Shown here: positions 1 through 15,758 of the stretch, piece after piece | Position numbering within the stretch: the first letter of the stretch is position 1 | Layout of the letters: each line of letters begins with the position of its first letter | Assembly: GCA_030586555.1 (NCBI GenBank) | Contig: JAURAC010000048.1 | Location: 1-15,758, forward strand | Origin: Candidatus Subterrananammoxibius californiae | Lineage (GTDB): Bacteria > Planctomycetota > Brocadiia > Brocadiales > Subterrananammoxibiaceae | Length of the DNA: 15,758 nucleotides | Direction of reading: 5' to 3' | Position numbers and translations under genes: made by a program | The notes under the pieces: model-generated | Database searches by the model: none | Told to the model about the DNA's origin: nothing | What the model saw: the letters and a program-made list of their open reading frames with translations, nothing else

Positions 1-336
1 CTTATATTAGAAATCTTCTTGCAATTTTACCGAGATGCGCTGTTATTTAAAACCCTGTCCTCTGTTTGTCATCCCGAACTTGTTTCGGGACCTAAAAATG
101 AAGCAAAGGCGGGGTTTCCTGAAACAAGTTCAGGACAGGGTCTTGAGGATATTCCATTATATAACCAGCATAAGAAGGATATGTTAAAATCCTTATGTAG
201 TAATCTCAACAAGGTAGGTATAATTGATATAATTGGACACATAACAACCTCGATTGAGTACTTAAATGCTAACGTAAATGTGAATCTGGTGTTTGAGAAT
301 CTTCTTGCAAAGATTGCCCTAAAGGGCAGGGAATAG
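1..336 (+). CDS. holB: DNA polymerase III delta' subunit, C-terminal part (5'-truncated by window edge)
   Basis: Frame 1 is open from base 1 (LILEIFLQFYRDALLFK...). The motifs FYRDxL...LYN...I..I...L..NVNxxLxFENLL match the HolB C-terminal pattern. Carries a ~30-aa palindrome-encoded insert. Confidence 0.7.
   Translation, partial: LILEIFLQFYRDALLFKTLSSVCHPELVSGPKNEAKAGFPETSSGQGLEDIPLYNQHKKDMLKSLCSNLNKVGIIDIIGHITTSIEYLNANVNVNLVFENLLAKIALKGRE
52..141. repeat. Composite palindromic element in frame in holB
   Basis: Outer 9-bp IR accctgtcc (52-60) / ggacagggt (133-141). Inner 19-bp IR tcccgaacttgtttcggga (72-90) / tcctgaaacaagttcagga (117-135) with 2 mismatches; each inner arm is itself a hairpin. 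Length 90 bp = 30 codons. Confidence 0.85.
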
Positions 337-573
337 GCAATAGGGAATAGCCAATAGGCAATAGAGAAGGAGTTAAAAAATAGAGTCGCATCAGGAACTG
401 GAAGTTTGGCAGAAAGCCATCTGGAGACACATCTGATAATATCAAAGAATTTGAACTACATAAACAGCCGAACTTTGGAGGTAATTTTACAAAAGACTCA
501 AGAGATAAACAAGATGCTCAATGCCTTGATAAACAGCCTGAGCAAGACCAGATGACCTTATTGGCTATTCCCT
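330..573. mobile_element. Heptamer inverted-repeat element enclosing a four-helix-bundle gene remnant
   Basis: Five tandem SSAATAG heptamers at 330-364. Perfect 15-bp IR agggaatagccaata (342-356) / tattggctattccct (559-573). Mobility is inferred. Confidence 0.6.
377..555 (+). pseudogene. Four helix bundle protein (23S rRNA IVS-protein-like), internally deleted
   Basis: 377-420 reads KIESHQELEVWQKA (family N-terminus). After a frame change, 421-555 reads LETHLIISKNLNYINSRTLEVILQKTQEINKMLNALINSLSKTR* (family C-terminus). The central region is absent. SD aaggag at 367-372 but no in-frame start codon. Confidence 0.8.
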
Positions 574-579
574 TCTTCT

Positions 580-2415
580 TTACTCCACGGTCACGCTCTT
601 GGCAAGGTTGCGTGGTTTGTCTACATCGCAACCCCTTATAACAGCCATGTGGTAGGCAAGAAGTTGCAATGGGATGACGGATAAGATGGGGGTAAGCACT
701 TCGAGGGTGTTTGGTATGTAAAACACATGGTCCACCTTCTTCTGAATCATGCTGTCTCCTTCTGAGGCAATTGCAATTACCTTTCCACCTCTTGCCCTTA
801 CTTCTTGAATGTTTGAAAGTATCTTCTCGTACGTACTATCCTTTGTAGCTATAAATACTACGGGCATATTCCTGTCAATTAACGCAATAGGTCCGTGCTT
901 CATTTCCGCAGCGGGGTAGCCTTCTGCGTGAATATAAGAAATTTCCTTTAACTTTAGGGCGCCCTCAAGCGCTACGGGGAAATTATATCCCCGTCCAAGA
1001 TATATGAAATTGGAGTTGTTACTGTAGAGTTTCGCCAATTCGTAGATTTCGGCTTCTTTGCCCAGAATCTTCTGCACCAAATCAGGTAACTTCTTTAGTT
1101 CACTTACCATTTCAATATTTTTAGCCGTGGATACGTTTTTCAGGCTACCTAAGAAAATTGTAAGAAGGTAGAGAACTGCTATCTGGGATGTAAATGCTTT
1201 TGTTGATGCAACGCCTATCTCTGGACCTGCGTGAAGATAAACGGCTGCGTCTGATTCCCTTGCAAGCGTGCTTCCCACCACGTTGCATATTGCGATTGTC
1301 ATTGCGCCCCTGCGTTTTGCTTCTCGCAGGGCGGCAAGGGTATCGGCAGTTTCCCCCGATTGGCTTATGGCTATTACGACCGTTCCAGCCTCAATGACAG
1401 GATTTCTGTACCTGAATTCTGATGCGTACTCAACCTCTGTTGGGATTCGACTGAGGTCTTCTATCATGTATTCTCCGATTAGGGCTGAATGCCATGATGT
1501 GCCACAGGCGACAATTACGATGCGCTTTGTATTGCGCAGCACTTCGTGTTTTCCCATTAGCTCCTTTAGTCGTACGCAACCACTAATGTCGTCGAGTCTT
1601 TCCATCATGGCATTCCTCAGTGATTCGGGTTGTTCGTGAATCTCCTTCAACATGAAATGATTATATCCACCTTTTTCAATCATTTCAGCATCCCAGAGAA
1701 TTTCCTCTATCTTTTTGTGAATAGGAATGCTGTCAAAGGTCATAATGGAAAGGTTATCCCTTGTTAAGACTGCCATTTCATTATCATCAAGATATATGAC
1801 CTTTTTAGTATGCTGGAGCATTGCCGTTATGTCCGAGGTAATGAAGTATTCTTCCTGTCCAATGCCTATCGCAAGCGGACTTCCCCTCCTTGCGGCAACA
1901 ATCTTATTAGGGTCTCTTGAGCTAATGACGGCTATACCATAAGTGCCCCGGGCACTCTTCAAGGCTTTACCAACTGCGTACTCTAAGTCCGCCTTAGGCG
2001 GATTAAAATATTTTTCAATCAGGTGAGATAAAACTTCGGTATCAGTTTCACTTCTAAAGACATGACCTTCTTTTTCTAACTGTGCCTTCAATAAATCGTG
2101 GTTTTCAATGATTCCGTTATGAACTACGGCAATCGAGTTGTTACAGTCTATAAGTGGGTGTGCATTTTCAAGGGTGGGTGCGCCGTGCGTTGCCCAACGG
2201 GTGTGGACTATTCCATAAGTACCTTTTGAAAACCGCCCACTTATCTTTTCTTCTAAGGCGGTAATTCGTCCTACCGACACCTCCGACTCAAGGGTATTAT
2301 TTTCTATTAAGGCAATCCCCGCCGAATCGTATCCACGATATTCAAGCCTTTTTATCCCTTCAACAAGGATTGGCTTTGCAACCCTGTTTCCAATATAACC
2401 AACTATTCCACACAT
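580..2415 (-). CDS. glmS: Glutamine--fructose-6-phosphate aminotransferase (isomerizing)
   Basis: MCGIVG N-terminus (catalytic Cys), LEYRGYDSAG, HTRWATHG, SQSGETADT, and C-terminal PRNLAKSVTVE. Start moved from 2436 to 2415 because the Cys must follow the initiator Met. Confidence 0.98.
   Translation of the reverse strand: MCGIVGYIGNRVAKPILVEGIKRLEYRGYDSAGIALIENNTLESEVSVGRITALEEKISGRFSKGTYGIVHTRWATHGAPTLENAHPLIDCNNSIAVVHNGIIENHDLLKAQLEKEGHVFRSETDTEVLSHLIEKYFNPPKADLEYAVGKALKSARGTYGIAVISSRDPNKIVAARRGSPLAIGIGQEEYFITSDITAMLQHTKKVIYLDDNEMAVLTRDNLSIMTFDSIPIHKKIEEILWDAEMIEKGGYNHFMLKEIHEQPESLRNAMMERLDDISGCVRLKELMGKHEVLRNTKRIVIVACGTSWHSALIGEYMIEDLSRIPTEVEYASEFRYRNPVIEAGTVVIAISQSGETADTLAALREAKRRGAMTIAICNVVGSTLARESDAAVYLHAGPEIGVASTKAFTSQIAVLYLLTIFLGSLKNVSTAKNIEMVSELKKLPDLVQKILGKEAEIYELAKLYSNNSNFIYLGRGYNFPVALEGALKLKEISYIHAEGYPAAEMKHGPIALIDRNMPVVFIATKDSTYEKILSNIQEVRARGGKVIAIASEGDSMIQKKVDHVFYIPNTLEVLTPILSVIPLQLLAYHMAVIRGCDVDKPRNLAKSVTVE
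1986..2004. repeat. Mini-palindrome (AATCCGCCTAAGGCGGA family) in frame in glmS
   Basis: agtccgcc-tta-ggcggatt, encoding NPPKAD. Related copies at 7727-7744, 8056-8073, 15056-15074 and 15189-15206. Confidence 0.75.
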
Positions 2416-2422
2416 AAATATC

Positions 2423-2575
2423 AGCTCATAGTTCATAGCTCATAGTTCATGGTAAAACTCCAAATCCCAAATCCAATAAAATCCCAATCTCCAATATCCA
2501 AATCTTTGGTAATTGGTAATTGGAAATTAATTGGGATTTTGATATTGAGATTTGGAATTTAATCAGCTATGAGCT
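2423..2575. repeat. Nested inverted heptamer-type repeat arrays in the glmS 5' region
   Basis: Outer AGYTCAT x4 (2423-2450) pairs with agctatgagct (2565-2575). Inner CCAAAT-rich / ATTTGG-rich arms (~2455-2560) include aaaatcccaat (2478-2488) / attgggatttt (2530-2540). Confidence 0.85.
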
Positions 2576-2588
2576 AATTTATTATTAC

Positions 2589-2617
2589 ATTCAAGCACAA
2601 TTTTCTTAATATGTCAA
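2589..2617 (-). promoter_or_regulatory. Putative sigma70 promoter for glmS
   Basis: Minus strand TTGACA-17 nt-TTGAAT, with TG preceding the -10 box. Confidence 0.45.
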
Positions 2618-3007
2618 AAAGAAATCCTGACCAAAGATTCTGGATTCGCTAAATGCCGTGTCGTTTACAATTTAGTTATCCATTTATTGTCAGAGTCTAA
2701 CTGTATCCTTAGTCTGATAAATTATCTTACGTTTATATAAGCACTATCATCTTTTTATTATATTTTCTGTAAGGGTTGGTATAATGAGTACTTAAGTCCT
2801 GAAGAAAGTCTTTTATTACTACGTTTGCATGATATTTACATAAATAAGTTCTTAGAGAAAACATAAAATGACATCTATATGATAACTTTATAGCACATTA
2901 TAAATGGGGTGTTGTGCATTTTTGGACATATTTACTTCTTTATCTTTTAATAAGGCACAGTATTTGTTATTATAGGTAAGCAATTTTATGAAAGGGAAGT
3001 TAAGACG

Positions 3008-3679
3008 ATGGAACCTATTGGAGAAGAAAAAGACGGCATGCATGATGCGGATAATTTGAAAAAACTTTATAAGGCTCAAGAACATGCATCCTTAGAGGTC
3101 TTATATTCTCTTGCAGATGCTGTTGATGCAAGGAACGCATATACCACAGGTCATTCTAAGCAGGTTACGGTATGCGCCACAAATATTGCCAGAGTTATGG
3201 GGCTTAAAAAGAAGGAACTCGATGCCATCAAGCTCTGTGGACCACTACATGATATTGGAAAGATTGCCGTTAAGGAAGCGATAATCGGCAAACCAGGAAA
3301 ATTAAGTGAAGATGAGTTTTCACAGATTAAAATTCATCCTTTAAAAGGGTACAGAATAATCGAAGGATTGGATTTTCTCGGTGAGGCACGCTTGCTTGCC
3401 CTGCACCATCACGAACGATTTGATGGAAAGGGTTATCCTTACGGTTTAAAAGGGGAAGAGATACCATTAGGCGCACGCATACTTGCCACAGCCGATGCTA
3501 TAGATGCAATGACCTCCGATAGGCCTTATCGGAAGGCGCTGGATATTGATATGGTTTTAATGGAATTAGATACGTGCTCTGGTACCCAATTTGACCCAAA
3601 GGTAGTAAATACGCTGTTGAAAAGAGTAGAACAGAAGCCAGAAATTTTTTACGGGATAATAAAGCCAAAAGATATTTAG
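3008..3679 (+). CDS. HD-GYP domain protein (putative cyclic dinucleotide phosphodiesterase), stand-alone
   Basis: T-G-H-S, LHDIGK, IHP, HHHERFDGKGYPYGL, ADAIDAMTSDRPYR motifs. Confidence 0.93.
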   Translation: MEPIGEEKDGMHDADNLKKLYKAQEHASLEVLYSLADAVDARNAYTTGHSKQVTVCATNIARVMGLKKKELDAIKLCGPLHDIGKIAVKEAIIGKPGKLSEDEFSQIKIHPLKGYRIIEGLDFLGEARLLALHHHERFDGKGYPYGLKGEEIPLGARILATADAIDAMTSDRPYRKALDIDMVLMELDTCSGTQFDPKVVNTLLKRVEQKPEIFYGIIKPKDI

Positions 3680-3743
3680 TTCATGGCTGATAGCTCATAG
3701 CTGATAGTACGTACATGTACTATGAACTACGAGCTATGAACTA
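3677..3743. terminator. Inverted AGCTCAT-family heptamer array between convergent genes; possible bidirectional terminator
   Basis: tagttca-tggctga-tagctca-tagctga-tagtac ... gtacta-tgaacta-cgagcta-tgaacta. The repeat structure is clear; the terminator role is inferred from position (no U-tract). Confidence 0.5.
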
Positions 3744-4868
3744 ACTTGCCATTTCAACATTTGCCCTGGGAATTACAGCGCTTGATGAATCGGAGAATTC
3801 AACCTCCAATACCCTCACTTTCGATTCTGTCTCAATCTGCTGAGGCTCTGAGGGAAGCGCCTTCACCTTTCCAATCCTGCCGAAGAAGGGTTCCCTTATT
3901 ACCCTGACAACGTCGCCTGCTTTGAGTCCTCCTCTTTCCTCTTCAATCTGTGTTTCAGAATATGCAACTTTTTCCAAGGCATAGGGAATGATTATTTCTG
4001 GCCTTACAACCCCCGCCCTTATCTGGGTTGCGCCATTAACGGATGCCTTAGAGCCAGCGCGCGATTTCAAGAGTTCAAACGTTTTATGCGCCATGCCGAT
4101 TTGTCCAAAGCCCTCCGTGATTATAAGTGTAATGCCAATATTCTCAGAACCAGTGATAGCCACACCGAGGTCATATCCTAATAGCTCTTTGAGGTCTTCG
4201 TCATAAAGACCGCCAGCAATTATAGCCTTAACACCTGTTTTTCTCGCCTTCTCAATTGTGTCACGTCGAACAAGAGAGCCACCAACAATTATCTTATCCT
4301 TTAATTTTTCCGTAATTTTGTCTGGATTCAATACCTCATCCGGTGAATCTACAGTAATTACTAATTCACCCGTTGCCTCACCGCCAACCCCGAAAATCCC
4401 CTGAACGAAGGTGGCAAACGATTCCATCGCCACACCTTCGTTCGTGATAACCTCGATGACCTTGCCATCAATATAGGCACGCACCTCCACAGGCCTTGGA
4501 GGTTCACGAAAAAGTACCTGTCCGGTGACGGTAGAGATACTTTCCACCGTCCCTGTGATAGGAGATGTACAAACAGTGCCAAACCACTTCAGGAATGATT
4601 TCGCTTCAGCTATTGGCTCATCCTTTTTAACAGGGTCGCCTTCTTTTTTCAACATGTAGTTTCTTAGCTCTTGAGGCTGAATGCCCAGTTTATTAACAAC
4701 ATTCGTTGAATGAACCTTGCCCGGCAATTCTGTCCTTGCTACGATATCCTCAGCCTTCAGAACATTCCCCTTATTGACAAGGACGTTCCCCTTCAAAGGC
4801 AATACCCGCCTTTTTTGTATTACCGTCTTCTCTGCAACCCGAAGACCCGGTGTATATGCATGTGTCAT
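3741..4868 (-). CDS. Conserved hypothetical protein of GlmL-like operons (barrel-sandwich-hybrid-like repeats, C-terminal KOW-like motif)
   Basis: 375 aa from MTHAYTPG. Contains G.VLV..G..(L/V)...(D/E).(I/V)A and SPITGTVE segments, and C-terminal GDVVRVIREPFFGRIGKV. The ORF-track extension to 4925 runs through a REP-like palindrome. Confidence 0.75.
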   Translation of the reverse strand: MTHAYTPGLRVAEKTVIQKRRVLPLKGNVLVNKGNVLKAEDIVARTELPGKVHSTNVVNKLGIQPQELRNYMLKKEGDPVKKDEPIAEAKSFLKWFGTVCTSPITGTVESISTVTGQVLFREPPRPVEVRAYIDGKVIEVITNEGVAMESFATFVQGIFGVGGEATGELVITVDSPDEVLNPDKITEKLKDKIIVGGSLVRRDTIEKARKTGVKAIIAGGLYDEDLKELLGYDLGVAITGSENIGITLIITEGFGQIGMAHKTFELLKSRAGSKASVNGATQIRAGVVRPEIIIPYALEKVAYSETQIEEERGGLKAGDVVRVIREPFFGRIGKVKALPSEPQQIETESKVRVLEVEFSDSSSAVIPRANVEMAS

Positions 4869-4882
4869 TGTTGTAAACCGTA

Positions 4883-4907
4883 GTAGGGGCAAACGGCGTT
4901 TGCCCTG
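4883..4907. repeat. GTAG-type REP-like palindrome
   Basis: GTAG followed by the stem gggcaaac-ggc-gtttgccc. Confidence 0.7.
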
Positions 4908-4926
4908 AATTTGAATAGAACACACA

Positions 4927-5283
4927 CTAAACCATCAACATCTTCATCGGTTCTAATGTTCTCTTAAAAGGGTTAAAAACTAATCCTAAGATTTCTAAGG
5001 TTACTACACCCAAAACAGGCTCGTCATCCCTTTCTCCTAAGATAACCGGAGTAAATCCATTTCCTTGAGGCAATTCTATGAAGCACTCCGAAACCTTCCT
5101 TTTAACCTTTGTTCCGTCTGCAAGAATAAACTTTACTTCCCTTTTAGGTTTTAAATTTAAATCTTTCCATACTTTTAAAGGGAGAAGTGTATAAGTTGCC
5201 CCACTATCAATGAGAAATTCCACTGCTCTTTCCTTGCTTTGGGAAATATCTTTGACTGCTCCTTTAATGTAACTTATACCCAT
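4927..5283 (-). CDS. Clan AA (retropepsin-like) aspartic protease, small single-domain
   Basis: FLIDSGATYTLLP catalytic motif and PVLGVVTLEILG; 118 aa; AGGA SD upstream. Confidence 0.88.
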   Translation of the reverse strand: MGISYIKGAVKDISQSKERAVEFLIDSGATYTLLPLKVWKDLNLKPKREVKFILADGTKVKRKVSECFIELPQGNGFTPVILGERDDEPVLGVVTLEILGLVFNPFKRTLEPMKMLMV

Positions 5284-5288
5284 TTCAT

Positions 5289-5333
5289 AGTCCTTTCTGT
5301 AACCTGAAAACCAGGTGTATGCGCCTGAGCCAT
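5289..5333 (-). pseudogene. Diverged duplicate of the 5' end of the 3741..4868 gene
   Basis: Reads MAQAHTPGFQVTERT versus MTHAYTPGLRVAEKT; 33/45 nt identical by manual ungapped alignment. Confidence 0.8.
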
Positions 5334-5383
5334 AATGTAAATCCCAAACTCAAATTAATCTTTGCCTATCTCCGTTCCCATAC

Positions 5384-5443
5384 TGAGCAATGAGAAAAAG
5401 ATTTTTCACTCATTGCTTAGAACTCATTGCTCATTGCTTATTG
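5384..5443. repeat. Inverted CTCATTG-family heptamer array
   Basis: tgagcaatgag (5384-5394) is complementary to ctcattgctca (5423-5433) and nearly so to ctcattgctta (5409-5419). Abuts the glmL-like stop codon. Confidence 0.8.
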
Positions 5444-7261
5444 TTATTCCGGATACGCATCCATTGCTTTAGCCCACTTCAATATCTGGGTTGACGCCTC
5501 GTTCCCACGCTCAGCGTGGGAACGAGTGGAGCGCTCTGCAAAGGTAATCGGCCTGCCCCGTGTATCAATTACGAGTCCAACTACGCCGCCCCAGACCTTT
5601 TGCTTGATTGCCTTGCCTTTGCCTTCTCCGAGGTCAAATAGTTTGGTAGGGGTTACCTCAATCTCTGCCTCCTGACCATCTGCAAGCGAATATAGTTTTA
5701 ATTCACCATAAGGAAGCGCATCTTCTATTACCTTCCCATCGGGCATAGTTATTTTGTAGTTGATGCACTTATCGCCTGATTTTCCAGTATTTGTAAGGGA
5801 AACACAAGCGCCAAGATTTATCAAACAATCCTTTTCAAAGACCTCCGTAGCTGCCCTTTGATTTACGCTGGAGAGTACGCCTAAATGGGGCATCATGAAG
5901 ATACTGTCCACAGTGAGCCTCGTTACGCCTTCAGGCTGGAAGGCATCTATGAGCATCATCATTGCCTGTGCCCTCCGTGGCGCATGAGATAGCACTCCGC
6001 CGCTTCCGACAATAATGTTTAGTTTAAGCATATCAACCAGCGACTCTTCTTCTGTGGCCTCGGCAAACGCCTCTGAAATATCCCTTTCCTTCTGGACACC
6101 CTTAAGACCTACCGCAAGGGATTTATGCTGTTCAAATGCGAGCCTGAGCGCCTCCCTCGAAAGGGCTTGTTCGATCTTTAATTCATCGAGCGTTTGGGGT
6201 ATGGTGGTGGGACGAATCATCTTGTTCTTTATCCTGTTACGAAGGTCTGCTTCATCGATATCAAAGGGAACCCACCTCATTATATTATCAATGCCCGCCT
6301 CTGCCAGCACGTTTGATACGCTGTAGCTCAGACCTAAGTTTGCGCTTACGGTACGATTAAAAGTTCCATCAAACACAGAGAAGACGTCTGTCGTTGCCCC
6401 GCCAATATCAACACCAACAACGTTTATATTGTTCTTCCTCGCAATCTCCTGCATTATAACGCCAACGGCGGCAGGGGTTGGCATTATGGGTGCGCCTGTC
6501 CATGACATAAGCGTTTTATAACCGGGCGCATGCATCATCACATGTTCAAGGAAGAGTTCTTGAATCTTCTGTCTCGCAGGAAACAGGTTTTCTCTTTCGA
6601 GTACAGGACGGATGTTATCGGTAATACAAAGCGCCGTCTTTTCCTCTAATACCCTTTTTATCTCCTCACGGGCCTCCTTGTTTCCTGCATATATAACAGG
6701 GAGCTTGAACGTCATGCCGAGCCTTGCCGTGGGGTTTGCCGCAGCTATGTATTCGGCAAGCTCTACAACATGGGTTTTAGTGCCACCATCCGTGCCACCT
6801 GAGAGGAGAATCATATCGGGGCGATGCTGTCGAATCAGTTCCATCTTTTCATGTGGAAGCCTCTGGTCGTTTGAAGCGATGACATCCGTTACGATAGCGC
6901 CTGCGCCTAAGGCTGCCCGCTGAGCGCTTTGGGCAGTCATTGTCTTAACTGCTCCAGCAACCATCATCTGAAGACCACCGCCAGCGCTGCTTGTGGAGAC
7001 GTAAATATCAACCCCAACATTGCCCTTTGCAGGCATAATAATCCTTTCGCCGTCCAGTATCTTTCTGCCGGATAATTCCTCGACCTCTGCAAAAGCATTG
7101 AGCACGCCCCTTGTAACATCCTCAAACGGCGCCTCAACAGTGGTAGGCGCTTCACCCCTATACGTCTGGCGGTACTCATTACCCTTCTTCTCAATGAGTA
7201 TTGCCTTTGTCGTTGTGCTTCCACAATCTGTTGCAATGATTACGTTCAATTCATCAGCCAT
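5444..7261 (-). CDS. GlmL/MutL-like (glutamate mutase L family) ASKHA-fold ATPase with C-terminal extension
   Basis: Two actin-like phosphate motifs, TDCGSTTTK and VDIGGATTDVFS, plus SSAGGGL, LSGGTDGG and MPTPAAV; 605 aa. Confidence 0.85.
   Translation of the reverse strand: MADELNVIIATDCGSTTTKAILIEKKGNEYRQTYRGEAPTTVEAPFEDVTRGVLNAFAEVEELSGRKILDGERIIMPAKGNVGVDIYVSTSSAGGGLQMMVAGAVKTMTAQSAQRAALGAGAIVTDVIASNDQRLPHEKMELIRQHRPDMILLSGGTDGGTKTHVVELAEYIAAANPTARLGMTFKLPVIYAGNKEAREEIKRVLEEKTALCITDNIRPVLERENLFPARQKIQELFLEHVMMHAPGYKTLMSWTGAPIMPTPAAVGVIMQEIARKNNINVVGVDIGGATTDVFSVFDGTFNRTVSANLGLSYSVSNVLAEAGIDNIMRWVPFDIDEADLRNRIKNKMIRPTTIPQTLDELKIEQALSREALRLAFEQHKSLAVGLKGVQKERDISEAFAEATEEESLVDMLKLNIIVGSGGVLSHAPRRAQAMMMLIDAFQPEGVTRLTVDSIFMMPHLGVLSSVNQRAATEVFEKDCLINLGACVSLTNTGKSGDKCINYKITMPDGKVIEDALPYGELKLYSLADGQEAEIEVTPTKLFDLGEGKGKAIKQKVWGGVVGLVIDTRGRPITFAERSTRSHAERGNEASTQILKWAKAMDAYPE
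5498..5526. repeat. Perfect palindrome in frame in the glmL-like gene
   Basis: ctcgttcccacgct-c-agcgtgggaacgag (14-bp arms), encoding TRSHAERGNE. Confidence 0.9.
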
Positions 7262-7377
7262 AGTTATTGCCTCTTACGATTAACGGTTAGGGTTACGAAG
7301 CCCGTTTCGACTTTCGGTTACGTCTTTCGTCTTTTTTGCCGTTGCCCTTACCGCTTGACGATACAGGCATCGTTACC

Positions 7378-7701
7378 CTAAGACGATTTTCTGATTTTTT
7401 CTATCAAGATGTCAATACTCGCCCTCTTTTCAAGGATTTGGGTAAGCCTTTCGTAGTCTTTTGGTGAAAAAAAGGTTGTTACAATTGGACGGAAGAAGAC
7501 CATCGCCTGACTCCCAATAAAATTGAGCGGCTTAACAGATTCGAGGAACATTATCGCAGGCTCAGCCATTCCACGCCTTATAACAAAGTCTGCAAGTTTT
7601 TCGACAAGGGCAAGGTCCTGCTCGTCAAGACCCTTATCCCCTTTTTCCATAGAAAAAGCATGGCTTAATCCACCTATAAAATTCCGAACTTTCCTACTCA
7701 T
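7378..7701 (-). CDS. Conserved hypothetical protein, first gene of the GlmL-like operon
   Basis: 107 aa from MSRKVRNF with PAIMFLESVKPLNFIGSQ. The alternative ATG at 7722 lies inside a repeat element; start uncertain. Confidence 0.7.
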   Translation of the reverse strand: MSRKVRNFIGGLSHAFSMEKGDKGLDEQDLALVEKLADFVIRRGMAEPAIMFLESVKPLNFIGSQAMVFFRPIVTTFFSPKDYERLTQILEKRASIDILIEKIRKSS

Positions 7702-7716
7702 GTTTAAGTACCAAAA

Positions 7717-7755
7717 TGTCATTGCGAGTCCGTCTTAGGCGGGCGTGGCAATCTC
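7717..7755. repeat. TGTCATTGCGAG...GTGGCAATCTC-type element with an internal mini-palindrome
   Basis: attgc (7721-7725) / gcaat (7748-7752) arms enclosing gtccgtcttaggcgggc, a variant of the TCCGCCTTAGGCGGA hairpin. Confidence 0.65.
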
Positions 7756-7784
7756 ATACCTATCGCTAATAGTACTTGCCATTT

Positions 7785-7813
7785 ACTTTATTGTAACCAC
7801 AACAGAATGTCAA
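7785..7813 (-). promoter_or_regulatory. Putative sigma70 promoter for the GlmL-like operon
   Basis: Minus strand TTGACA-17 nt-TAAAGT. Confidence 0.55.
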
Positions 7814-7817
7814 GCGA

Positions 7818-7913
7818 AATGAGCAACGAGACGAGGTGAAGTAAGACGTAAGAAGTAAGACGAAAGACGAAAAAACATCTCACTTCTCACATCTCCTCAT
7901 CGTTCATTGCTTA
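7818..7913. repeat. Nested inverted heptamer arrays downstream of the ligase
   Basis: Inner GTAAGAM-like repeats (7841-7869) against catctcacttctcacatctc (7876-7895). Outer CTCATTG-family arms aatgagcaacgag / ctcatcgttcattgctta. Confidence 0.7.
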
Positions 7914-7914
7914 A

Positions 7915-9426
7915 TTACAATGCTCTTTTTAGGACCTTGCCGGTGGTGCCGTGGGGGAGTTCTTTTCTAAACTCAAAATATTTTGGTATTTTATATGGTG
8001 GGAGTTTTCCTTTGCAGAATTCCCTTAGTAGAGACGCAATGCGTTGCGTCTCTACATCCGTCTCAGGCGGATTCTCATGCTCGTGCAGGGAAACATAAGC
8101 CTTTGGCACCTCTCCCCTAACATCATCCTTAACACCTACCACAGCTACCTCAAAGACCTTCGGGTGATGGCTTAATACTTCTTCTATCTCGTATGGCGAT
8201 ACGTTTTCCCCACTTATAATTATAAGTTCCTTTTTCCGCCCGGTAATCTTAAGAAAGTCATCCTCGTCGAGCCTTCCAATATCACCAGTTTTGAGCCAGC
8301 CATCAGGGGTTATAGTTTGCCGTGTCTCCTCGGGCATATTATGATAGCCCTTCATTACGTTGGGTCCCTTTACCCAGATTTCACCATCTTTATTAGCAGG
8401 AAGGTTACTACCGTTATCGTCCACAATCCTCACCTTTAGATTTGGAAGTGGCTGACCAGCGGTGCATGGCTTGTTATTTTCAGGACTATTGACGGAGACA
8501 ACCGGAGACGCCTCCGTTAAGCCATATCCTTCTATTAGTGGAAAAGAGGAAATCTTGCTAAAGGAGTCTATCAAGTCTTTAGCCACAGGTTCGCCGCCAG
8601 TAGTGCATAGTCGCAGAGACTCAACGCATTGCGTCTCTACCTTTTGTCTCTCTGCTATGGTTCGTAAAAGGACGCGATACATGGAAGGAACTGCGACCAC
8701 AAATGTAACCTTATTCTTTGTTATTGCATCGAGCGCTTTTGGAGCAGAAAAACGACCTGTGTAAACAATGGTGGCTCCAAAATACAATGGTAGCGCAAGT
8801 GTGGTGGTAAAGGCAAGTGCATGGAATAAGGGTAACGTGCCGAGCATTATTTCATGCTCGGTAAAATGAAACCGCGGAACACAACCTTGCAGATTGCTTA
8901 CAATATTTTTATGCGTAAGCATTACGCCTTTAGGGTTGGCGGTAGTTCCAGAGGTATAAAATAGTGCCGCTAACTCATCATCGTTACCAGTGTACGGGTC
9001 AATATCCTTGGTAGGGGCAGGTTTTACCCCTGCTTTCGCAGGGGCTACCCCTACCAGTTTGTCTAAATAGATAGGGTTTATACCTTGATTGCTAAGGATT
9101 TTTTCAAAGGCAGAGAGGGTTAGTACAGTGTTGAGGTTGGCATCTTTTATAACGTAAGATAACTGTGCGGGTGAATACAGCGGGTTTAATGGCACAGGTA
9201 TCTTTCCCGCGAAAAGGATGCCAAAATAACTTGCTACAAATTCCTTTGAGGAGGGTAATAATATGCCTACGTGTTGCTTGCTAACATCACTATTATTTAG
9301 TAAAAAAGTTACCTTTTTTGATGTCTGCGCAAGTTCGTAATAGCTTACCGGACCGCCATCATCAATAATTGCAATTTTTTCAGAGAAGAAATTACATGTT
9401 TCAAGAAATCTTCTCGCTAAGGTCAT
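7915..9426 (-). CDS. AMP-dependent synthetase / long-chain-fatty-acid--CoA ligase family protein
   Basis: YTSGTTANPKGVMLTH, EGYGLTE, WLKTGDIG, GRKKELII and C-terminal TGKVLK. Substrate not determinable. Confidence 0.92.
   Translation of the reverse strand: MTLARRFLETCNFFSEKIAIIDDGGPVSYYELAQTSKKVTFLLNNSDVSKQHVGILLPSSKEFVASYFGILFAGKIPVPLNPLYSPAQLSYVIKDANLNTVLTLSAFEKILSNQGINPIYLDKLVGVAPAKAGVKPAPTKDIDPYTGNDDELAALFYTSGTTANPKGVMLTHKNIVSNLQGCVPRFHFTEHEIMLGTLPLFHALAFTTTLALPLYFGATIVYTGRFSAPKALDAITKNKVTFVVAVPSMYRVLLRTIAERQKVETQCVESLRLCTTGGEPVAKDLIDSFSKISSFPLIEGYGLTEASPVVSVNSPENNKPCTAGQPLPNLKVRIVDDNGSNLPANKDGEIWVKGPNVMKGYHNMPEETRQTITPDGWLKTGDIGRLDEDDFLKITGRKKELIIISGENVSPYEIEEVLSHHPKVFEVAVVGVKDDVRGEVPKAYVSLHEHENPPETDVETQRIASLLREFCKGKLPPYKIPKYFEFRKELPHGTTGKVLKRAL
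8028..8073. repeat. GTAG REP-like palindrome plus adjoining mini-palindrome, in frame in the ligase
   Basis: gtagagacgcaa-tgcg-ttgcgtctctac (8028-8055, 12-bp perfect arms) directly followed by atccgtctcaggcggatt (8056-8073). Encodes NPPETDVETQRIASL. Confidence 0.9.
8613..8640. repeat. Second copy of the GTAGAGACGCAA REP-like palindrome, in frame in the ligase
   Basis: Minus strand gtagagacgcaatgcgttgagtctctgc, 26/28 identical to 8028-8055 in opposite orientation. Encodes VETQCVESL. Confidence 0.9.
9009..9056. repeat. Nested GTAGGGGC REP-like palindrome in frame in the ligase
   Basis: Outer tggtagggg (9009-9017) / cccctacca (9048-9056). Inner cccctgc-tttc-gcagggg (9027-9044; GAAA loop on the mRNA strand). 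Encodes LVGVAPAKAGVKPAPT. Confidence 0.88.
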
Positions 9427-9432
9427 GGTGAA

Positions 9433-9490
9433 AGCTCATAGCTCATAGCAATTTAGCTCATAGCAACTATGAGCTATGAGCCATGAGCTA
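9433..9490. repeat. Inverted AGCTCAT-family heptamer array
   Basis: agctcat-agctcat-agc...agctcat-ag versus ctatgag-ctatgag-ccatgag-cta, filling the dksA-ligase spacer. Confidence 0.85.
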
Positions 9491-9976
9491 TTAGTTGTGG
9501 CTATAACTGTCAACGGACTCAACATCTTTTACCTTTTCCTTAATCCTATGATTTTCATCGCTCTCCATGTTGCCCAGTGACTCACCCCATAGAGAAGCCT
9601 CTGCCTCAACCTTGGCTCCCAGCTCTATTTCTTCTTCCTCTACTTCCTTGCACTTTATACAGAGGGTAGCAAATGGCAATGCCTCAAGCCGTGCCTTTTT
9701 TATTGGTTCCCCACAATTCCTGCAGATACCATAGCTACCAGACTTTATTCTTGCCAGAGCCTCATCAATCTGTTCAAGTTCCCTTCTTTCTTCCTCAACT
9801 ACAAGCCATGACAGCTCATCCCTTAAGGTGTTTGAGGCAATATCAGCAAGGTCGGTAAAACGATGCCCCCCCAACTCACGGTTTTCTTGAAATCTCCGTT
9901 CGATTTCCCGGATTAGATGCGTCCGTCTCATTGACAGACGATTTTTAAGTTGCCTGAGTGACATTTTTCTTCGCAT
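9491..9976 (-). CDS. DksA/TraR family C4 zinc-finger transcription factor
   Basis: Coiled-coil tip DLADIA (DxxDxA) and YGICRNCGEPI...RLEALPFATLCIKCK. Start placed at 9976 behind GGAGGG; acidic C-terminal tail. Confidence 0.9.
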   Translation of the reverse strand: MRRKMSLRQLKNRLSMRRTHLIREIERRFQENRELGGHRFTDLADIASNTLRDELSWLVVEEERRELEQIDEALARIKSGSYGICRNCGEPIKKARLEALPFATLCIKCKEVEEEEIELGAKVEAEASLWGESLGNMESDENHRIKEKVKDVESVDSYSHN

Positions 9977-10588: not shown

Positions 10589-11896
10589 TTAATCGAACGA
10601 GTTAATGACGAGGCCTGTAAGGGGCTTTGGATAAAAGTATGTGGCTTTTGGGGGCATCTTTTGTCTTACGCTTGCAATCCTGCTTACCTGTTCGATGAGC
10701 GTTGGGTTGTGAAAGAAGGCTAATTGGTATTTTCCTTCGTTTACAAGTTTCACGGCTTCTACTTCGCTCTGGATATATTCAATGCTGTCTTGTTTTACGT
10801 TTTCATCTGTTTTAATTCCAAGATACTTATCGAGAATTAAATCATGCAATATGCATACGTCTAAGTCCTTCCATTCGGGATGTCGCCAGCCCTGAACTTG
10901 ATTCAGGGTAGACTTTATTTCATTGCGAAGAAGTAAAAGGTAAAACCTCTTTTCTTTGCCTTCATACATACCAAAGGCATGCTTATCGGCATGCTGATGA
11001 AGCTTCTTTATTAATGAATGGACGTTACAATCCTTCCCAAGATTTTCTACATTAAAAGAATCTTTTATAGCGGTTTTGAACTGCTCTAAGCTAAAACTCG
11101 CTGGGAGATTTTTTATTACTCTATGCGTAGGGAGTATTTTCAGTCCGGGATTGTTCAGTGAAACGCACATCATCATTATATAATCAACTGCGCTTTCTTG
11201 CCCATGTTTCCCTTTTAACTCGTTTCTATAAGCGAGGGCTGATTCGTAGCGGTGGTGTCCGTCTGCGATAAAGAGCGGCTTATCTTTCATAAGCCCCTGA
11301 ATTTTTGCAATAATTGCCGGGTCATCTATCGCCCAGAAACAATTTTTTACCCCTGCTTCATCAAAAGCAGTGATTGCTTTTGATGAATGTTGAACTGCAT
11401 CTGTTAGTACACCTTCAATGGCATTATCGGGATAGAGGGCAAATATCGGGCTAAGGTTGGCTTTACATGCCCTGATTAATTTGAGGCGGTCTTCTTTCGG
11501 TCCTGGCATCGTCTGTTCGTGTGGATAGATATGCCCAGTGCCAAATTCCTCAAGTTTGACCCCTGAGATAAAACCTCTTCTTACAAACTTCCTTCCTTCG
11601 AGTTCAAACTCCTGGTCATAGACGTATATGGAAGGGCAAATATCGCGTTTAAATACGCCTTCACGCAGCCAGTTGTGGAGAAACCTGGCTGCCCTCGTGT
11701 ATTTATTTTCGTGTTCATTATCGTCTGGAAGTTCCTTGCCGAGGATTAGCCTGATGATGTTGTGTGGATGCAACTCGTAATATTTTTCTCTATCCTGTGG
11801 AGAAATCACATCGTAAGGCGGCGTAAGTACCTTTGAAAAGTCCTCTATTGGTTCCAGATTATATCTTATCCCTCGAAAGGGCATTATCGTTGCCAG
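10589..11896 (-). CDS. DUF1015 family protein
   Basis: PFRGIRY, PPYDVIS, IYPHEQT, FIADGHHRY, ILPTHR, MPPKATYFYPKP motifs. Start probably CTG at 11896 (alternative ATG at 11884). Confidence 0.9.
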   Translation of the reverse strand: MATIMPFRGIRYNLEPIEDFSKVLTPPYDVISPQDREKYYELHPHNIIRLILGKELPDDNEHENKYTRAARFLHNWLREGVFKRDICPSIYVYDQEFELEGRKFVRRGFISGVKLEEFGTGHIYPHEQTMPGPKEDRLKLIRACKANLSPIFALYPDNAIEGVLTDAVQHSSKAITAFDEAGVKNCFWAIDDPAIIAKIQGLMKDKPLFIADGHHRYESALAYRNELKGKHGQESAVDYIMMMCVSLNNPGLKILPTHRVIKNLPASFSLEQFKTAIKDSFNVENLGKDCNVHSLIKKLHQHADKHAFGMYEGKEKRFYLLLLRNEIKSTLNQVQGWRHPEWKDLDVCILHDLILDKYLGIKTDENVKQDSIEYIQSEVEAVKLVNEGKYQLAFFHNPTLIEQVSRIASVRQKMPPKATYFYPKPLTGLVINSFD

Positions 11897-12846: not shown

Positions 12847-14364
12847 TTACAAAGCTGAAGATTTAACTTCCTGAATGAGATATTGATTATCCTTGATACA
12901 ATTGGTTTCCCCAAATTTGTATATATCCTTGAGCGTCTCATAAGCTTCTGCACCACTTTCAAAAAATTTATCACTTCTTATTTCAGTTGTTATAGAACCT
13001 GACGAACCAATTAGTTTTAGCTCAATATACCTTTTGTAAATTGCGTTTATTATTGATTTTAAAAATTCCCCTTCTTTATCTTTAGTTATAACCAATTCAG
13101 CCCTATTTTCGGAATCCTTTATTAAGTTTCTAATTCTGAACACCACCACAGGGAAAATATGTTCAATATTATAATTTGTTATATTGCGTAACACTCGCTT
13201 TGTATCCTCACTAGGTTCATTATTCTCAAACTTTATATTATTTCTAATCGAAGTATTTTTCAATTCTCCATTTATAGCTTTTTCAACATACTCTCTATAG
13301 TAAATATCTCTCTGTAATTTAAGTTGATTAATAACAATATCTTCTCTTATCGAGTAAAGTAAGGGGATAATCTTAGAAACAACCTTAATAGTTGTTTGTA
13401 CCTTACCCTTTTCTTTATTCCGGATCAATCTGATAAAGATGTTATAGATTGGTGCTCTTTGATTTGATAACCTAAAAATTTCCTTGTATTTTGTAAAGAT
13501 ACCCGTTGCAATAACTGGCCTCAATAAGGTAAGGATATGTACTTTCGGTTTTCTTCCAATAATCTCACCAAATCGATATTCAATTTCTACTTTACTTCCG
13601 TACTTGGCTATGAAATCTCTAAAAATGGTTTCTTCTAAAAATTTTTTATGCTTACTTCCGAAGATATCGTCTACTTTAACATTTTGAGTATCATTATTTG
13701 CATTTGCTATTAACGTTCCTGTTGCATATTCATCTAAGTTGTCAATTGATTCAGTTATTTTATCTAACGAGTTAATTGTAATTCTAATCTTTGAATTTAA
13801 AAGTTTATCTAAAGCTAATGCATTAAAATTAGTAAAATATTTATTATTATCACACAAAAATTTACGTACTTCTGAAACTTTTGGGAATTTGACCAATCTC
13901 AGAAAGTCTCGTATTGGGTTATTGTTTTTGAATTCGTGATTTAAAAATTCATTAAAAGACCTTTGAACAAAGTTTTCTAAACTTTTTGTATTCGTTGAAT
14001 ATTGCTTAAGTAAAGATAGTATCAATATGATAAATCTTGTTTGATTTCCGTTTGTTAAACAACAAGTTTCATAACTAATTGATAAATAATCGCTATCTAT
14101 GTTCACACCGGTTGCAGACACAATCATACCTGAGTGGAGAAAACGGAACATCTCCTGATCCTTAAGAATACTTTTTATTATTTCTAGGTTTGTCTTTTTT
14201 AACCCGATGTATTCCCGAGGGTTACTGCCAGCTTCGGTATCCCGGTAATCTAAAAAAAGAACATCCCTAAAAAGTGTTTCCCCGAAAATAGTCTTTTTAT
14301 CACCTGATACAAAACATTTCTCTGGAAAGGTCAATTTATTCTCAAATTTGAATATATCCGACAT
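12847..14364 (-). CDS. AIPR-like (abortive infection phage resistance, ParB/Srx-type motif) protein
   Basis: SNPREYIG...N.EI..SI...F.FLHSGMIV...LTNGNQT...IANANNDTQNVK..D resembles the AIPR pattern NVR.YLG/NNGI/NG.QT/ATN.QN. ATG at 14364 follows AAGGGGA; 505 aa; AT-rich. Confidence 0.7.
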   Translation of the reverse strand: MSDIFKFENKLTFPEKCFVSGDKKTIFGETLFRDVLFLDYRDTEAGSNPREYIGLKKTNLEIIKSILKDQEMFRFLHSGMIVSATGVNIDSDYLSISYETCCLTNGNQTRFIILILSLLKQYSTNTKSLENFVQRSFNEFLNHEFKNNNPIRDFLRLVKFPKVSEVRKFLCDNNKYFTNFNALALDKLLNSKIRITINSLDKITESIDNLDEYATGTLIANANNDTQNVKVDDIFGSKHKKFLEETIFRDFIAKYGSKVEIEYRFGEIIGRKPKVHILTLLRPVIATGIFTKYKEIFRLSNQRAPIYNIFIRLIRNKEKGKVQTTIKVVSKIIPLLYSIREDIVINQLKLQRDIYYREYVEKAINGELKNTSIRNNIKFENNEPSEDTKRVLRNITNYNIEHIFPVVVFRIRNLIKDSENRAELVITKDKEGEFLKSIINAIYKRYIELKLIGSSGSITTEIRSDKFFESGAEAYETLKDIYKFGETNCIKDNQYLIQEVKSSAL

Positions 14365-14992
14365 CTTTATTCCCCTTAAATATTTGACGCATGATGATTG
14401 ACACATATTTAAAATCCGAGATAAGTTCTTTGAATCTTTTACCATTGTTTGCTATCAAAAATTTTCCTGGTTCTTGAAAACGGTTTAGCTTGTACTTTCT
14501 TTCATACTCCTTAGACAATACTCGCTTTGCAAATCCTGAGTAGTGAGATAAATAATTTCTAATTTTATAAACAAATTGGATAGAATCTTTTTGTTTAGAT
14601 GATATTTTTTTTACAAAAGGATTATATTGCTCTACTGTATACTTTTTAAATAATCCATTCACCTTATCTAATTCATGGAAGTCTCTATAGTTATCTGAAA
14701 ATAAAATTGCCCTAATTACACTATTATCTAAATTTATCCTCTTAGGTAGGTTCATTTTTTCTTTTAGCATAGAACAATCTAATTTAACAGCCAATATCAG
14801 CTCTTCTTCTAGAAATTTTTCCCATAATGCACATACTCTTAATATTAAGGACTCTAAAAGCAAGCCTTTTTCTTTCTCAGGTATTCTTCCTTTACTTGAT
14901 AAATCCAAGATAATTTCAGCCCCATATTGTAAAATTTCTTCTATATTATTCTCAAACTTTTTATGATTATTTATTATGCTTTGTTTTTGCAT
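14342..14992 (-). CDS. Putative HEPN-domain ribonuclease
   Basis: Helical protein with ALWEKFLEE and IRNYLSH (RxxxxH). Overlaps the downstream gene by 23 nt. Start is ATG 14992 (TTG 15034 possible). Confidence 0.6.
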   Translation of the reverse strand: MQKQSIINNHKKFENNIEEILQYGAEIILDLSSKGRIPEKEKGLLLESLILRVCALWEKFLEEELILAVKLDCSMLKEKMNLPKRINLDNSVIRAILFSDNYRDFHELDKVNGLFKKYTVEQYNPFVKKISSKQKDSIQFVYKIRNYLSHYSGFAKRVLSKEYERKYKLNRFQEPGKFLIANNGKRFKELISDFKYVSIIMRQIFKGNKDVGYIQI

Positions 14993-15071
14993 TGTAAATC
15001 GACTCAAGCAAGTGTACTGCTCCCTATTTGTCAAGCATCATTTTTTGTAGTAAGTAATCCGCCTAAGGCAG

Positions 15072-15219
15072 ATTGTTCTTTCTCAAATTAAACTGGTGTC
15101 TTATAGTCTAAAGCCGAATGTGGATAGTCATCATTATAATGAGGGATTTACACACCTGAAAAAACTTTTCTGGCAGTCTCAACGGCTTGTCAGCCTTAGA
15201 CGGATTCAGGATTTTTCAT
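15072..15219 (-). pseudogene. Degenerate direct repeat copy B / collapsed HEPN partner gene of the MNT
   Basis: ATG at 15219 overlaps the MNT end (MKNPE), followed by a mini-palindrome containing TAA, then AVETARKVF/(frameshift)QVCKSLI, homologous to copy A. Confidence 0.55.
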
Positions 15220-15535
15220 TAAAAGGGTAAACTTCTCTGGCGCTTTCGAGGGCGCTTATAATAAATGGGTTTTCATTCTCCTTCATTTGTTCAAATTCTT
15301 CTGGCGTATAAACGAAAACATCAACAGGAATTGGAAAAAGGGGAACTTCCAAAAGCCGTTCCAGAAACCTCTTATTAGTTTTTTTGATAATAATTAAATC
15401 CAGGTCGCTATATTCATCAGCATCGGCACGAGCTTGTGAGCCAAAGATTATAATTTTTTCCACAGGCCCATAGCCATTCACTATAGTCTTGACGATTTCA
15501 TCAACATTTATTTTTTCTTTGATTTCAACTAGCAT
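15206..15535 (-). CDS. Minimal nucleotidyltransferase (MNT) domain protein
   Basis: IIIFGSQARADADEYSDLDLIII (GS...DxD) and VDVFVYTPEEF. Start at 15535 avoids overlap with ahcY. Confidence 0.9.
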   Translation of the reverse strand: MLVEIKEKINVDEIVKTIVNGYGPVEKIIIFGSQARADADEYSDLDLIIIKKTNKRFLERLLEVPLFPIPVDVFVYTPEEFEQMKENENPFIISALESAREVYPFNEKS

Positions 15536-15542
15536 GGGTCTT

Positions 15543-15758
<216 letters not shown>

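Follow-up and report, generated by a model that had tools for sequence, protein, structure and literature searches.

The subject of this study is a set of short palindromic repeats that lie in frame within protein-coding genes of Candidatus Subterrananammoxibius californiae, as found in a stretch of 15,758 nt (contig C106, here called the window) and across the 3.34-Mb genome of 150 contigs to which it belongs, that of an anammox-related planctomycete of the order Brocadiales. The genome has most probably been colonised by about ten families of palindromes of the repetitive extragenic palindrome (REP) type, accompanied by genes for REP-associated tyrosine transposases (RAYTs), with copies residing in frame in real genes. 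When nine family patterns were merged with a generic scan for GTAG...CTAC palindromes, 671 elements were obtained, of which 226 lie inside open reading frames (ORFs), 269 are intergenic, 90 lie near ORF ends and 86 straddle them. The internal elements, defined as lying at least 90 nt from the start and at least 30 nt from the end of an ORF, occupy 194 of the 2817 ORFs (6.9%; 68 elements per Mb) in a set of our own calls (at least 100 residues, greedy, non-overlapping) that covers 85.7% of the genome, and the elements as a whole are still enriched in the non-coding 14%. A further family, R9, was counted separately and adds 15 internal copies among its 62. An earlier note on the window had proposed that at least five unrelated palindrome families were inserted in frame into four housekeeping-type proteins within 9 kb, and the results that bear on that proposal are given where they arise.

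Repeat families and their distribution

Palindrome families were defined by k-mer counting and consensus patterns, with window and genome scanned for hairpins, and the family copy numbers depend on the mismatch thresholds chosen. Hairpins with at least 12 paired bases number 566 in the genome and 59 in a third-order Markov simulation of equal size. R2, the most abundant family ((A)TCCGCCTNAGGCGGA(T)), has 140 copies at no more than one mismatch; R1 (GGGTGGCATGGACAAACTTGTTTGTCCGTGC, with GGGTGG at one end) has 130 at no more than four, and R9 (CCTGAACTTGTTTCAGG) has its 62 at no more than two. The remaining families are R3 (GTAGGGGCAGGTTTNAAACCTGCCCCTAC, 60 copies), R4a and R4b (compound hairpins of the form GGTAGACAACG..., 72 and 99 copies), R5 (GTAGGGGCGTATTGCAATACGCCCCTAC, 36 copies), R6 (GTAGGGGCACGTTGCAACGTGCCCCTAC, 29 copies), R7 (GTAGAGACGCAA...TTGCGTCTCTAC, 36 copies) and R8 (CTCGTTCCCACGCTCAGCGTGGGAACGAG, 13 copies). 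Consensus building gave sharp family boundaries and unconserved flanks, and control patterns of R2 and R3 read backwards matched the genome nowhere. Single-linkage clustering of hairpins by shared 10-mers was of no use for defining families, since it chained 1629 of 2112 hairpins into one cluster.

A GTAG foot is present in R3, R4, R5, R6, R7 and a GTAGGGGCAAACG type, and is absent from R2, R8 and R9. The GTAG/CTAC feet are common to R7 and the GTAGGGGC type, so that the two, although separate families, belong to one class and are not entirely unrelated. Palindromes with both feet number 190 in the genome, and 97 of them, about half, are intragenic. The share of internal copies varies by family, from 2–4% in R4 to 50–62% in R2, R3, R6 and R7; the number of stop-free frames was rejected as the reason for the rarity of R4 in genes, as about three of its six frames are open and yet only 2–4% of its copies are internal. 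R9 occurs mostly as singlets (52 of 62 copies), with five doublets whose spacers of 27–28 nt differ in sequence and of which one lies within a gene. Internal copies are as near to the consensus as intergenic ones (0.97 versus 1.44 mismatches in R3 and 0.83 versus 1.60 in R6); they are therefore no old relics in decay. Twenty host ORFs were taken at random from a set of 176, and 14 have a Pfam match at E ≤ 1e-5, among them TrpA, ValRS, an amino-acid kinase, MnmE, GMP synthase, a FliI-type ATPase, PmbA/TldD and a histidine kinase, and six have none.

In-gene elements of the window

The ten palindromes listed in the earlier note are all present where it placed them, the frames of holB, glmS, the GlmL-like gene and the ligase gene are open across them, and the hosts are as it had named them. 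The in-gene sites were compared with orthologues of relatives, the nearest genomes in the species collection sharing the order only, with protein identities of 53–80%.

The C-terminal part of holB (DNA polymerase III delta'; 1–336, forward strand) has weak NCBIfam matches (E 9.5e-5) and orthologues in 23 of 30 relatives; the N-terminal part is carried by the end of contig C135, which overlaps the window start (1–55) by 55 nt. The element at 52–141, described before as one palindrome, proved to be a REPIN-like doublet of two inverted R9 hairpins of about 25 nt (72–90 and 115–137) separated by a 28-nt spacer; it encodes 30 residues, TLSSVCHPELVSGPKNEAKAGFPETSSGQG, and all 19 orthologues compared are shorter there by 17–28 residues. 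The contig is broken precisely where this doublet begins, which, with the 55-nt overlap, indicates that the repeats fragment the assembly. In glmS (glutamine–fructose-6-phosphate transaminase; 580–2436, reverse strand; TIGR01135, 845 bits) an R2 palindrome at 1986–2004 encodes NPPKAD and coincides with a gap of three residues in 20 of 21 orthologues and of one residue in the other. The adjacency of holB and glmS was looked for in relatives and no synteny was found. The gene for a GlmL/MutL-family protein with a C-terminal extension (PF13941; 5444–7261, reverse strand) carries an R8 palindrome, CTCGTTCCCACGC...GCGTGGGAACGAG, at 5498–5526, encoding TRSHAERGNE, where 16 of 21 orthologues show a gap of eight residues and the other five a gap of six.

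Four elements lie in the gene for an AMP-binding acyl-CoA ligase (7915–9426, reverse strand), one of four paralogues in the genome. The double-foot R7 REP at 8028–8055, GTAGAGACGC...GCGTCTCTAC, encodes VETQRIASLL and falls on a clean gap of nine residues in all 18 homologues (15 orthologues and three in-genome paralogues). The R2-like palindrome that adjoins it at 8056–8073, with one mismatch to the consensus, encodes NPPETD, and here all 18 homologues are of equal length. A decayed R7 copy at 8613–8640, encoding VETQCVESLR, makes the protein four residues longer than 17 of the 18. The compound palindrome with GTAGGGGC feet at 9009–9056, encoding LVGVAPAKAGVKPAPTK, has R3-like ends and a unique centre; its match to a family (GTAGGGGCAGGTTT) is limited to the feet and the first 17 nt or so, and the element as a whole is unique; it lies in a variable linker that is 1–9 residues longer than in all 18 homologues.

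The ligase was folded with an alignment of 16 sequences, giving a single model, with no control positions, of mean predicted local distance difference test score (pLDDT) 79 and predicted template modelling score (pTM) 0.75. In it the 9009–9056 insert (residues 124–140) is modelled in coil, with pLDDT below 50 at residues 129–138, and would be a disordered loop on the surface. Residues 263–272, encoded at 8613–8640, are predicted as a short helix of low confidence between two regular elements (block pLDDT 57–64), and the 8028–8055 insert (residues 458–467) as an N-terminal extension of helix 457–472 (block pLDDT 73–91).

An in-gene palindrome missing from the earlier list was found at 10887–10911, where an R9 hairpin (CCCTGAACTTGATTCAGGG) lies in a DUF1015 gene (PF06245; 10589–11884, reverse strand) and coincides with a gap of two residues in five of five orthologues. 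The window thus holds members of five families: R9 (52–141 and 10887–10911), R2 (1986–2004, 8056–8073, 15056–15074 and weakly 7727–7744), R8 (5498–5526), R7 (8028–8055 and 8613–8640) and the GTAGGGGC type (4883–4907 and 9009–9056). Where the earlier note had spoken of unrelated families, R7 and the GTAGGGGC type in fact share their feet. Of the three intergenic relatives that it named, the R2 copy at 15056–15074 is confirmed with one mismatch. The palindrome at 7727–7744, just upstream of the ORF at 7378–7722, is a decayed and weak member that departs from the TCCGCCTNAGGCGGA consensus at four of 16 positions. The GTAGGGGCAAACG-type REP at 4883–4907 (eight genome copies at no more than three mismatches) lies upstream of the ORF at 3741–4925 or at its extreme 5' end, being within the first 14 codons of the longest ORF, or in a leader position if translation really begins at an in-frame ATG at 4868.

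Gap test beyond the window

Nine further sites, sampled at random elsewhere in the genome, were compared with up to five relatives each, which with the eight window sites makes 17. Gains were found in TrpA and an amino-acid kinase (R2, +3 residues each), a metalloenzyme (R2, +2), ValRS (R1, +7 or +5), Kdo kinase (R5, +8) and a FliI-type ATPase (R3, +7). There was no gain in GMP synthase (R2), in a CbiA-like protein, where a perfect 28-nt copy of R6 stands opposite partly similar residues of equal length in relatives, or in MnmE (R7), where relatives have a conserved DSFTGEDLVE stretch. An element therefore coincides with an orthologue gap, of +2 to +28 residues, at 13 of 17 sites (seven of eight in the window and six of nine elsewhere), and the net gain is below the length of the element at all 17. 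The expectation of the earlier note that gaps coincide with palindromes holds at these 13 sites and fails at 8056–8073 and three of the nine sampled sites, equal length in orthologues being the very outcome that it had named as contrary to it.

A search for empty sites among paralogues within the genome gave seven pairs, three of them informative. Between C107 and C68 (about 90% identical), 15 nt of R2 replace 6 resident nt, a net gain of 9; between C150 and C74, a 28-nt REP and the 2 nt next to it take the place of 15 nt in a heptamer array. The tandem paralogues C46:56740–59230 and C46:59872–62305 differ in the family found at their shared site, one having R1 and the other a double-foot GTAGGGGCGACCCGCCGGGTCGCCCCTAC element, with about 20 nt on each side non-homologous. 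A scan of metagenome contigs for a close relative of the ligase gave a best identity of 44% and no empty-site allele.

RAYT genes

The Y1_Tnp profile (PF01797) has eight matches in the genome. Seven of the proteins match best to NF047646 (REP-associated tyrosine transposase), five of them at or above its cut-off of 80 bits, and one is of the IS200 type. The HUH histidines (H55 and H57) and the catalytic Y115 are invariant, and the eight proteins have the consensus MPNHVHLI...WQ...YIxNNPVR. Three of the seven RAYT-type genes have cognate palindromes beside them, in agreement with the suggestion of the earlier note that RAYT or TnpA(Y1) genes might be flanked by the same palindromes. The RAYT at C78:18933–19467 lies between two inverted copies of R8, the same family as in the GlmL-like gene, and that on C150 is flanked by R1-like hairpins. 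The RAYT at C59:12280–12829 (L091) is flanked by a GTAGGGGCGGTTCGC-type REP (of the GTAGGGGC type), a copy of which lies just outside the gene, and itself carries in frame a perfect 30-nt palindrome of the GTAGGGGCGGTTCGCGAACCGCCCCTAC type that encodes CRGGSRTAPT. No flanking cognate pair was found at the RAYTs of C78:793–1468 and C21, and R2 occurs near a RAYT only once, as a copy 55 nt upstream of that on C53.

Reading phase and encoded peptides

The 97 double-foot REPs inside ORFs begin at codon position 1 in 70 cases, at position 2 in 27 and at position 3 in none (binomial p for 70 versus 27, 1.5e-5). The absence from position 3 follows from the foot, because GTAG placed there gives a TAG stop. 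In R3 the split is sharper, with 32 of 35 copies in one phase. The phase bias probably arises from selection rather than from targeting. Its outcome is a small set of recurrent peptides: VGAGL/FKPAPT (R3), VGARCNVPLx (R6), VGAYCNTPLx (R5), VETQNFASLx (R7) and NPPxAD or xSASGGx (R2).

Relatives and groundwater populations

The palindrome families are shared across Brocadiales and not specific to this lineage. R3 (at no more than three mismatches) was found in 12 of the 30 sampled genomes of the order, with up to 48 copies, and R2 (at no more than one mismatch) in 11 of the 30, including all ten of family f2, with up to 255 copies in a 2.2-Mb genome; the abundance of R2 among the relatives is patchy. 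The ligase orthologue of one relative (G012, locus L007) has an R2 palindrome of its own at about residue 49, exactly at the position of an extra segment carried by three genomes of its genus; this site is not one of those of the window inserts. Along with L007, loci L006 and L009 show that relatives of another family have their own R2 palindrome and extra segment in the ligase. The unusual density claimed for this lineage is borne out by the 226 internal elements, and is qualified by the presence of the families in 11–12 of 30 genomes and of an insert at another site in a relative's ligase.

In groundwater runs of a second, independent study the ligase stretch was recovered at 0.83–0.89 of sampled words, and in two further runs at 0.08–0.10. 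Contigs of four runs (X2, X4, X7 and X8), which are contigs of mixed-community metagenomes, were aligned to the window in one alignment run at a likeness of at least 80%, and length alleles were found at several of the elements. At holB, window positions 54/55–142 are replaced by 28 letters (X2 and X4) or by 29 or 5 letters (X7), alleles shorter by 60, 60 and 84 nt that are all in frame, and the 29-letter allele contains one R9-like hairpin. Across 5444–5893 an X8 contig of about 90% likeness is shorter by 24 letters, equal to the eight-residue gap of the GlmL-like protein, and one X7 contig omits 9 letters at 10890–10912. In X7 and X8, a T at 8614 and a G at 8621 turn the decayed R7 copy at 8613–8640 into a perfect palindrome. 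An X8 contig spans 7985–8427 without a gap, so that the element at 8028–8055 or a sequence of equal length is shared.

Origin of the in-gene elements

Under the reading that we prefer, families in part with GTAG...CTAC double feet and in part without them would be mobilised as single-stranded hairpins by RAYTs, of which this genome has seven of the TnpA_REP tyrosine (HUH-Y1) class; single-strand mobilisation is the model established for enzymes of the TnpA_REP and IS200/IS605 kinds. Copies that land in a gene would survive only where the net change in length is a multiple of three, no stop arises and the protein tolerates the 5–30 residues concerned, as it may in loops, linkers and helix ends, selection presumably removing the copies that break the frame, create a stop or harm the structure. 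Such a filter would leave recurrent peptides of the kind VGAGLKPAPT, VETQxxASLx, VGARCNVPLx, NPPxAD and SASGG. Landing would usually remove or overwrite resident bases, leaving a net gain below the length of the element and sometimes none.

Several observations weigh against this reading. In the 150-contig assembly, from which some genes may be missing, none of the RAYTs was found to be flanked by copies of R2, R7 or R9, nor specifically of R3, R5 or R6. The four sites without gain (8056–8073, R2 in GMP synthase, R7 in MnmE and R6 in the CbiA-like protein) are not predicted by a plain insertion model, and elements of 28, 29 or 31 nt cannot enter in frame as fixed units. Inspection of flanks during consensus building revealed no conserved target motif next to the elements. 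The double-foot scan still returned 38 palindromes from the genome read backwards, and so also catches other palindrome families, its count being no pure measure of GTAG feet. The ORF calls are crude, and the proteins of relatives are only about 55–80% identical, so that exact junctions are unreadable in them. The shortfall in net gain, together with the four sites of zero gain, means that simple insertion is incomplete as a description: either the junctions vary and integration costs resident bases, or the REPs overwrite the resident sequence. The loop-peptide addition proposed in the earlier note is accordingly narrowed, one ligase insert being modelled as a disordered surface loop, four of 17 sites gaining nothing and the gain elsewhere always falling below the element.

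That the REPs overwrite rather than insert, by templated replacement (gene conversion, or excised REP single strands annealing at replication forks through microhomology) with any gain in length incidental, seems to us unlikely. It would agree with the shortfall at every site and with the sites of zero gain, above all the perfect 28-nt REP of the CbiA-like protein over equal-length, partly similar residues, with the 15 nt that replace 6 in the C107/C68 pair, with the occurrence of R1 and a double-foot REP at one site in the C46 paralogues and with the near-perfect state of internal copies. However, most sites gain 2–28 residues and the alleles at holB (5, 28/29 and 88/89 nt) form a series that looks as if hairpin units had been added step by step, while loops drift in length at 55–70% identity, so that small deficits may be later deletions, and no homology between donor and recipient supports overwriting. 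Were overwriting nevertheless the case, REPs would continually supply replacements of coding sequence in conserved enzymes, and would do so with a preferred reading phase. A little more doubtful still is the view that R2 (TCCGCCTNAGGCGGA) is not mobile at all but a selected or conversion-driven motif, for instance a site for protein binding or of the uptake type, or a hyper-abundant palindrome like HIP1, that also builds up in coding DNA. R2 has no GTAG foot, is only 15–17 nt long, brings a net gain of 0 to +3 residues, occurs in all ten f2 genomes at up to 255 copies, and has no RAYT flanked by a pair of it, the copy upstream of the C53 RAYT being single. These traits would suit such a motif; its sharp boundaries and unconserved flanks, its patchy abundance in relatives, as for mobile repeats, and the gap of three residues that recurs in GlmS, TrpA, the amino-acid kinase and the paralogue pair precisely where the motif lies speak for mobility. 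Native structural or regulatory hairpins, chance inverted repeats, mis-assembly or pseudogenes offer a highly improbable explanation, which is already largely refuted: some window hairpins are single-copy (e.g. that at 11357–11387) and the genome is a bin of 150 contigs with 5.1% contamination, but the family copy numbers and controls argue against chance, the host proteins align over their full length with orthologues and have no stops, and the contigs of the independent study carry the same sequence at 0.83–0.89 of sampled words. Colonisation by mobile REP-type families, with resident bases lost or overwritten on landing, thus remains the reading that we prefer.

Other features of the window

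About 20 further hairpins were found by the window scan to be single-copy and were treated as native or due to chance. Among the single-copy hairpins, a near-perfect palindrome of 31 nt with 14 pairs lies within the DUF1015 gene at 11357–11387 and, being single-copy in the genome, is no family member. Nearly all intergenic regions contain two to five tandem copies of a 7-nt unit (in the window at 328–364, 2423–2528, 3677–3707, 5423–5443, 7305–7334, 7838–7895 and 9433–9491). The unit differs from place to place (AGGCAAT, TCATAGT, TTGGTAA, TAGCTCA, GTAAGAC and others), and unit and reverse complement often form a long hairpin. Genome-wide, 706 of the 1916 arrays reported by Tandem Repeats Finder have period 7, followed by period 8 with 245; of the 706, 492 are not in the interior of an ORF. 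The array at 2471–2490 shows indels of 7–8 nt in other populations. Heptamer arrays of this kind resemble the STRR heptamers of cyanobacteria.

At 12847–15034 there are two AT-rich ORFs, one with a weak match to AIPR (abortive infection), followed by a gene for an MntA/HalB-like nucleotidyltransferase at 15206–15601; together they are a possible defence islet. Contig cover of the 12847–15034 region is thin or absent in the other runs, and the parts of 12.6–15.2 kb without cover in X4, X7 and X8 were not interpreted.

Comparison with known systems

The elements share with REPs the form of short dispersed palindromes, a GTAG foot in several families, HUH-Y1 RAYTs and cognate REPs flanking them, and depart from REPs in location, with 226 of the 671 ORF-internal and 269 intergenic. 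In the available part of their article, Quentin et al. (2018; PMC6006769) report on REPs with a double foot (5' GT[AG]G and 3' C[TC]AC) that go with TnpA_REP subclass 2.4, and in-frame REPs in tnpA_REP genes. Their subclass is matched here in the feet on one long hairpin, the RAYT motifs NH[IFV]H, WQ and YIxNNP and the in-frame REP in the C59 transposase gene, a match by motifs and not by placement in a tree. Unlike the case they describe in that part, where the in-frame REPs lie in tnpA_REP genes, those found here lie in about 190 other genes, and the non-GTAG families R1, R2, R8 and R9 take part.

A close published precedent concerns intragenic GTAG/CGTC REPs in many species, most numerous in Opitutus terrae, from the PVC superphylum (Planctomycetes, Verrucomicrobia and Chlamydiae), and in Rickettsia conorii (Di Nocera et al., 2013; PMC3733652, as far as the available part of the article goes). 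There, as here, short GTAG palindromes encode 7–30 residues in known enzymes, occur as singles and dimers and belong to several families, with several RAYT loci per genome, and the peptides are rich in Gly, Ala and Pro (VGPALAAG there and VGAGLKPAPT here). The same part of that article discusses the tolerance of intragenic REPs and says that most REPs are intergenic, whereas about half of the double-foot copies here (97 of 190) are intragenic; the families also differ in sequence. By our own count, part 1 of its Additional file 3 has 70 rows for O. terrae, compared with the 226 ORF-internal elements in 3.34 Mb here, about three times as many. It also cites the Rickettsia palindromic elements (RPEs), palindromic repeats that lie in frame in genes.

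The likeness to RPEs is one of behaviour only, in that both lie in frame in housekeeping genes and add tolerated peptides. RPEs, described by Ogata, Claverie and co-workers, are reportedly about 100–150 nt long and add some 30–50 residues. The elements studied here, at 17–31 nt (90 nt for the doublet), fall outside that family by length, are presumably unrelated to it in sequence and occur in a free-living lineage alongside RAYT genes. The holB element, with its two inverted REP-like hairpins and spacer, resembles the REPINs (Bertels & Rainey, 2011), in which two inverted REPs with a short spacer form a larger hairpin that replicates as a unit, and five R9 doublets have spacers of 27–28 nt. 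It differs in that doublets are only five among 62 R9 copies, their spacers vary, one lies in a gene, and no RAYT flanked by R9 was found.

A literature search for REPs in anammox bacteria or Brocadiales found nothing, and one for work on intragenic REPs newer than that of Di Nocera et al. (2013) found nothing besides a 2024 review of miniature inverted-repeat transposable elements. The in-gene density of about 7% of ORFs, or 68 per Mb, goes beyond the richest published case that we found, the 70 rows of O. terrae, and at least five families and seven RAYTs are present together in a free-living and environmentally important order. The elements provide natural data on the peptide insertions that conserved enzymes can tolerate, and the filled and empty length alleles of groundwater populations could serve to read the still little-understood junctions of REP movement. 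In annotation, the elements account for recurrent odd peptides in Brocadiales proteins, such as VGAGLKPAPT, and for contig breaks at repeats.

In conclusion, the phenomenon is of a kind already known from intragenic GTAG REPs, from in-frame REPs in RAYT genes and from the RPEs of Rickettsia, and what is new is the order of the host, the density, at about three times the O. terrae rows, the number of co-resident families and RAYTs, the shortfall of the net gain against the length of the element and the length alleles in populations.

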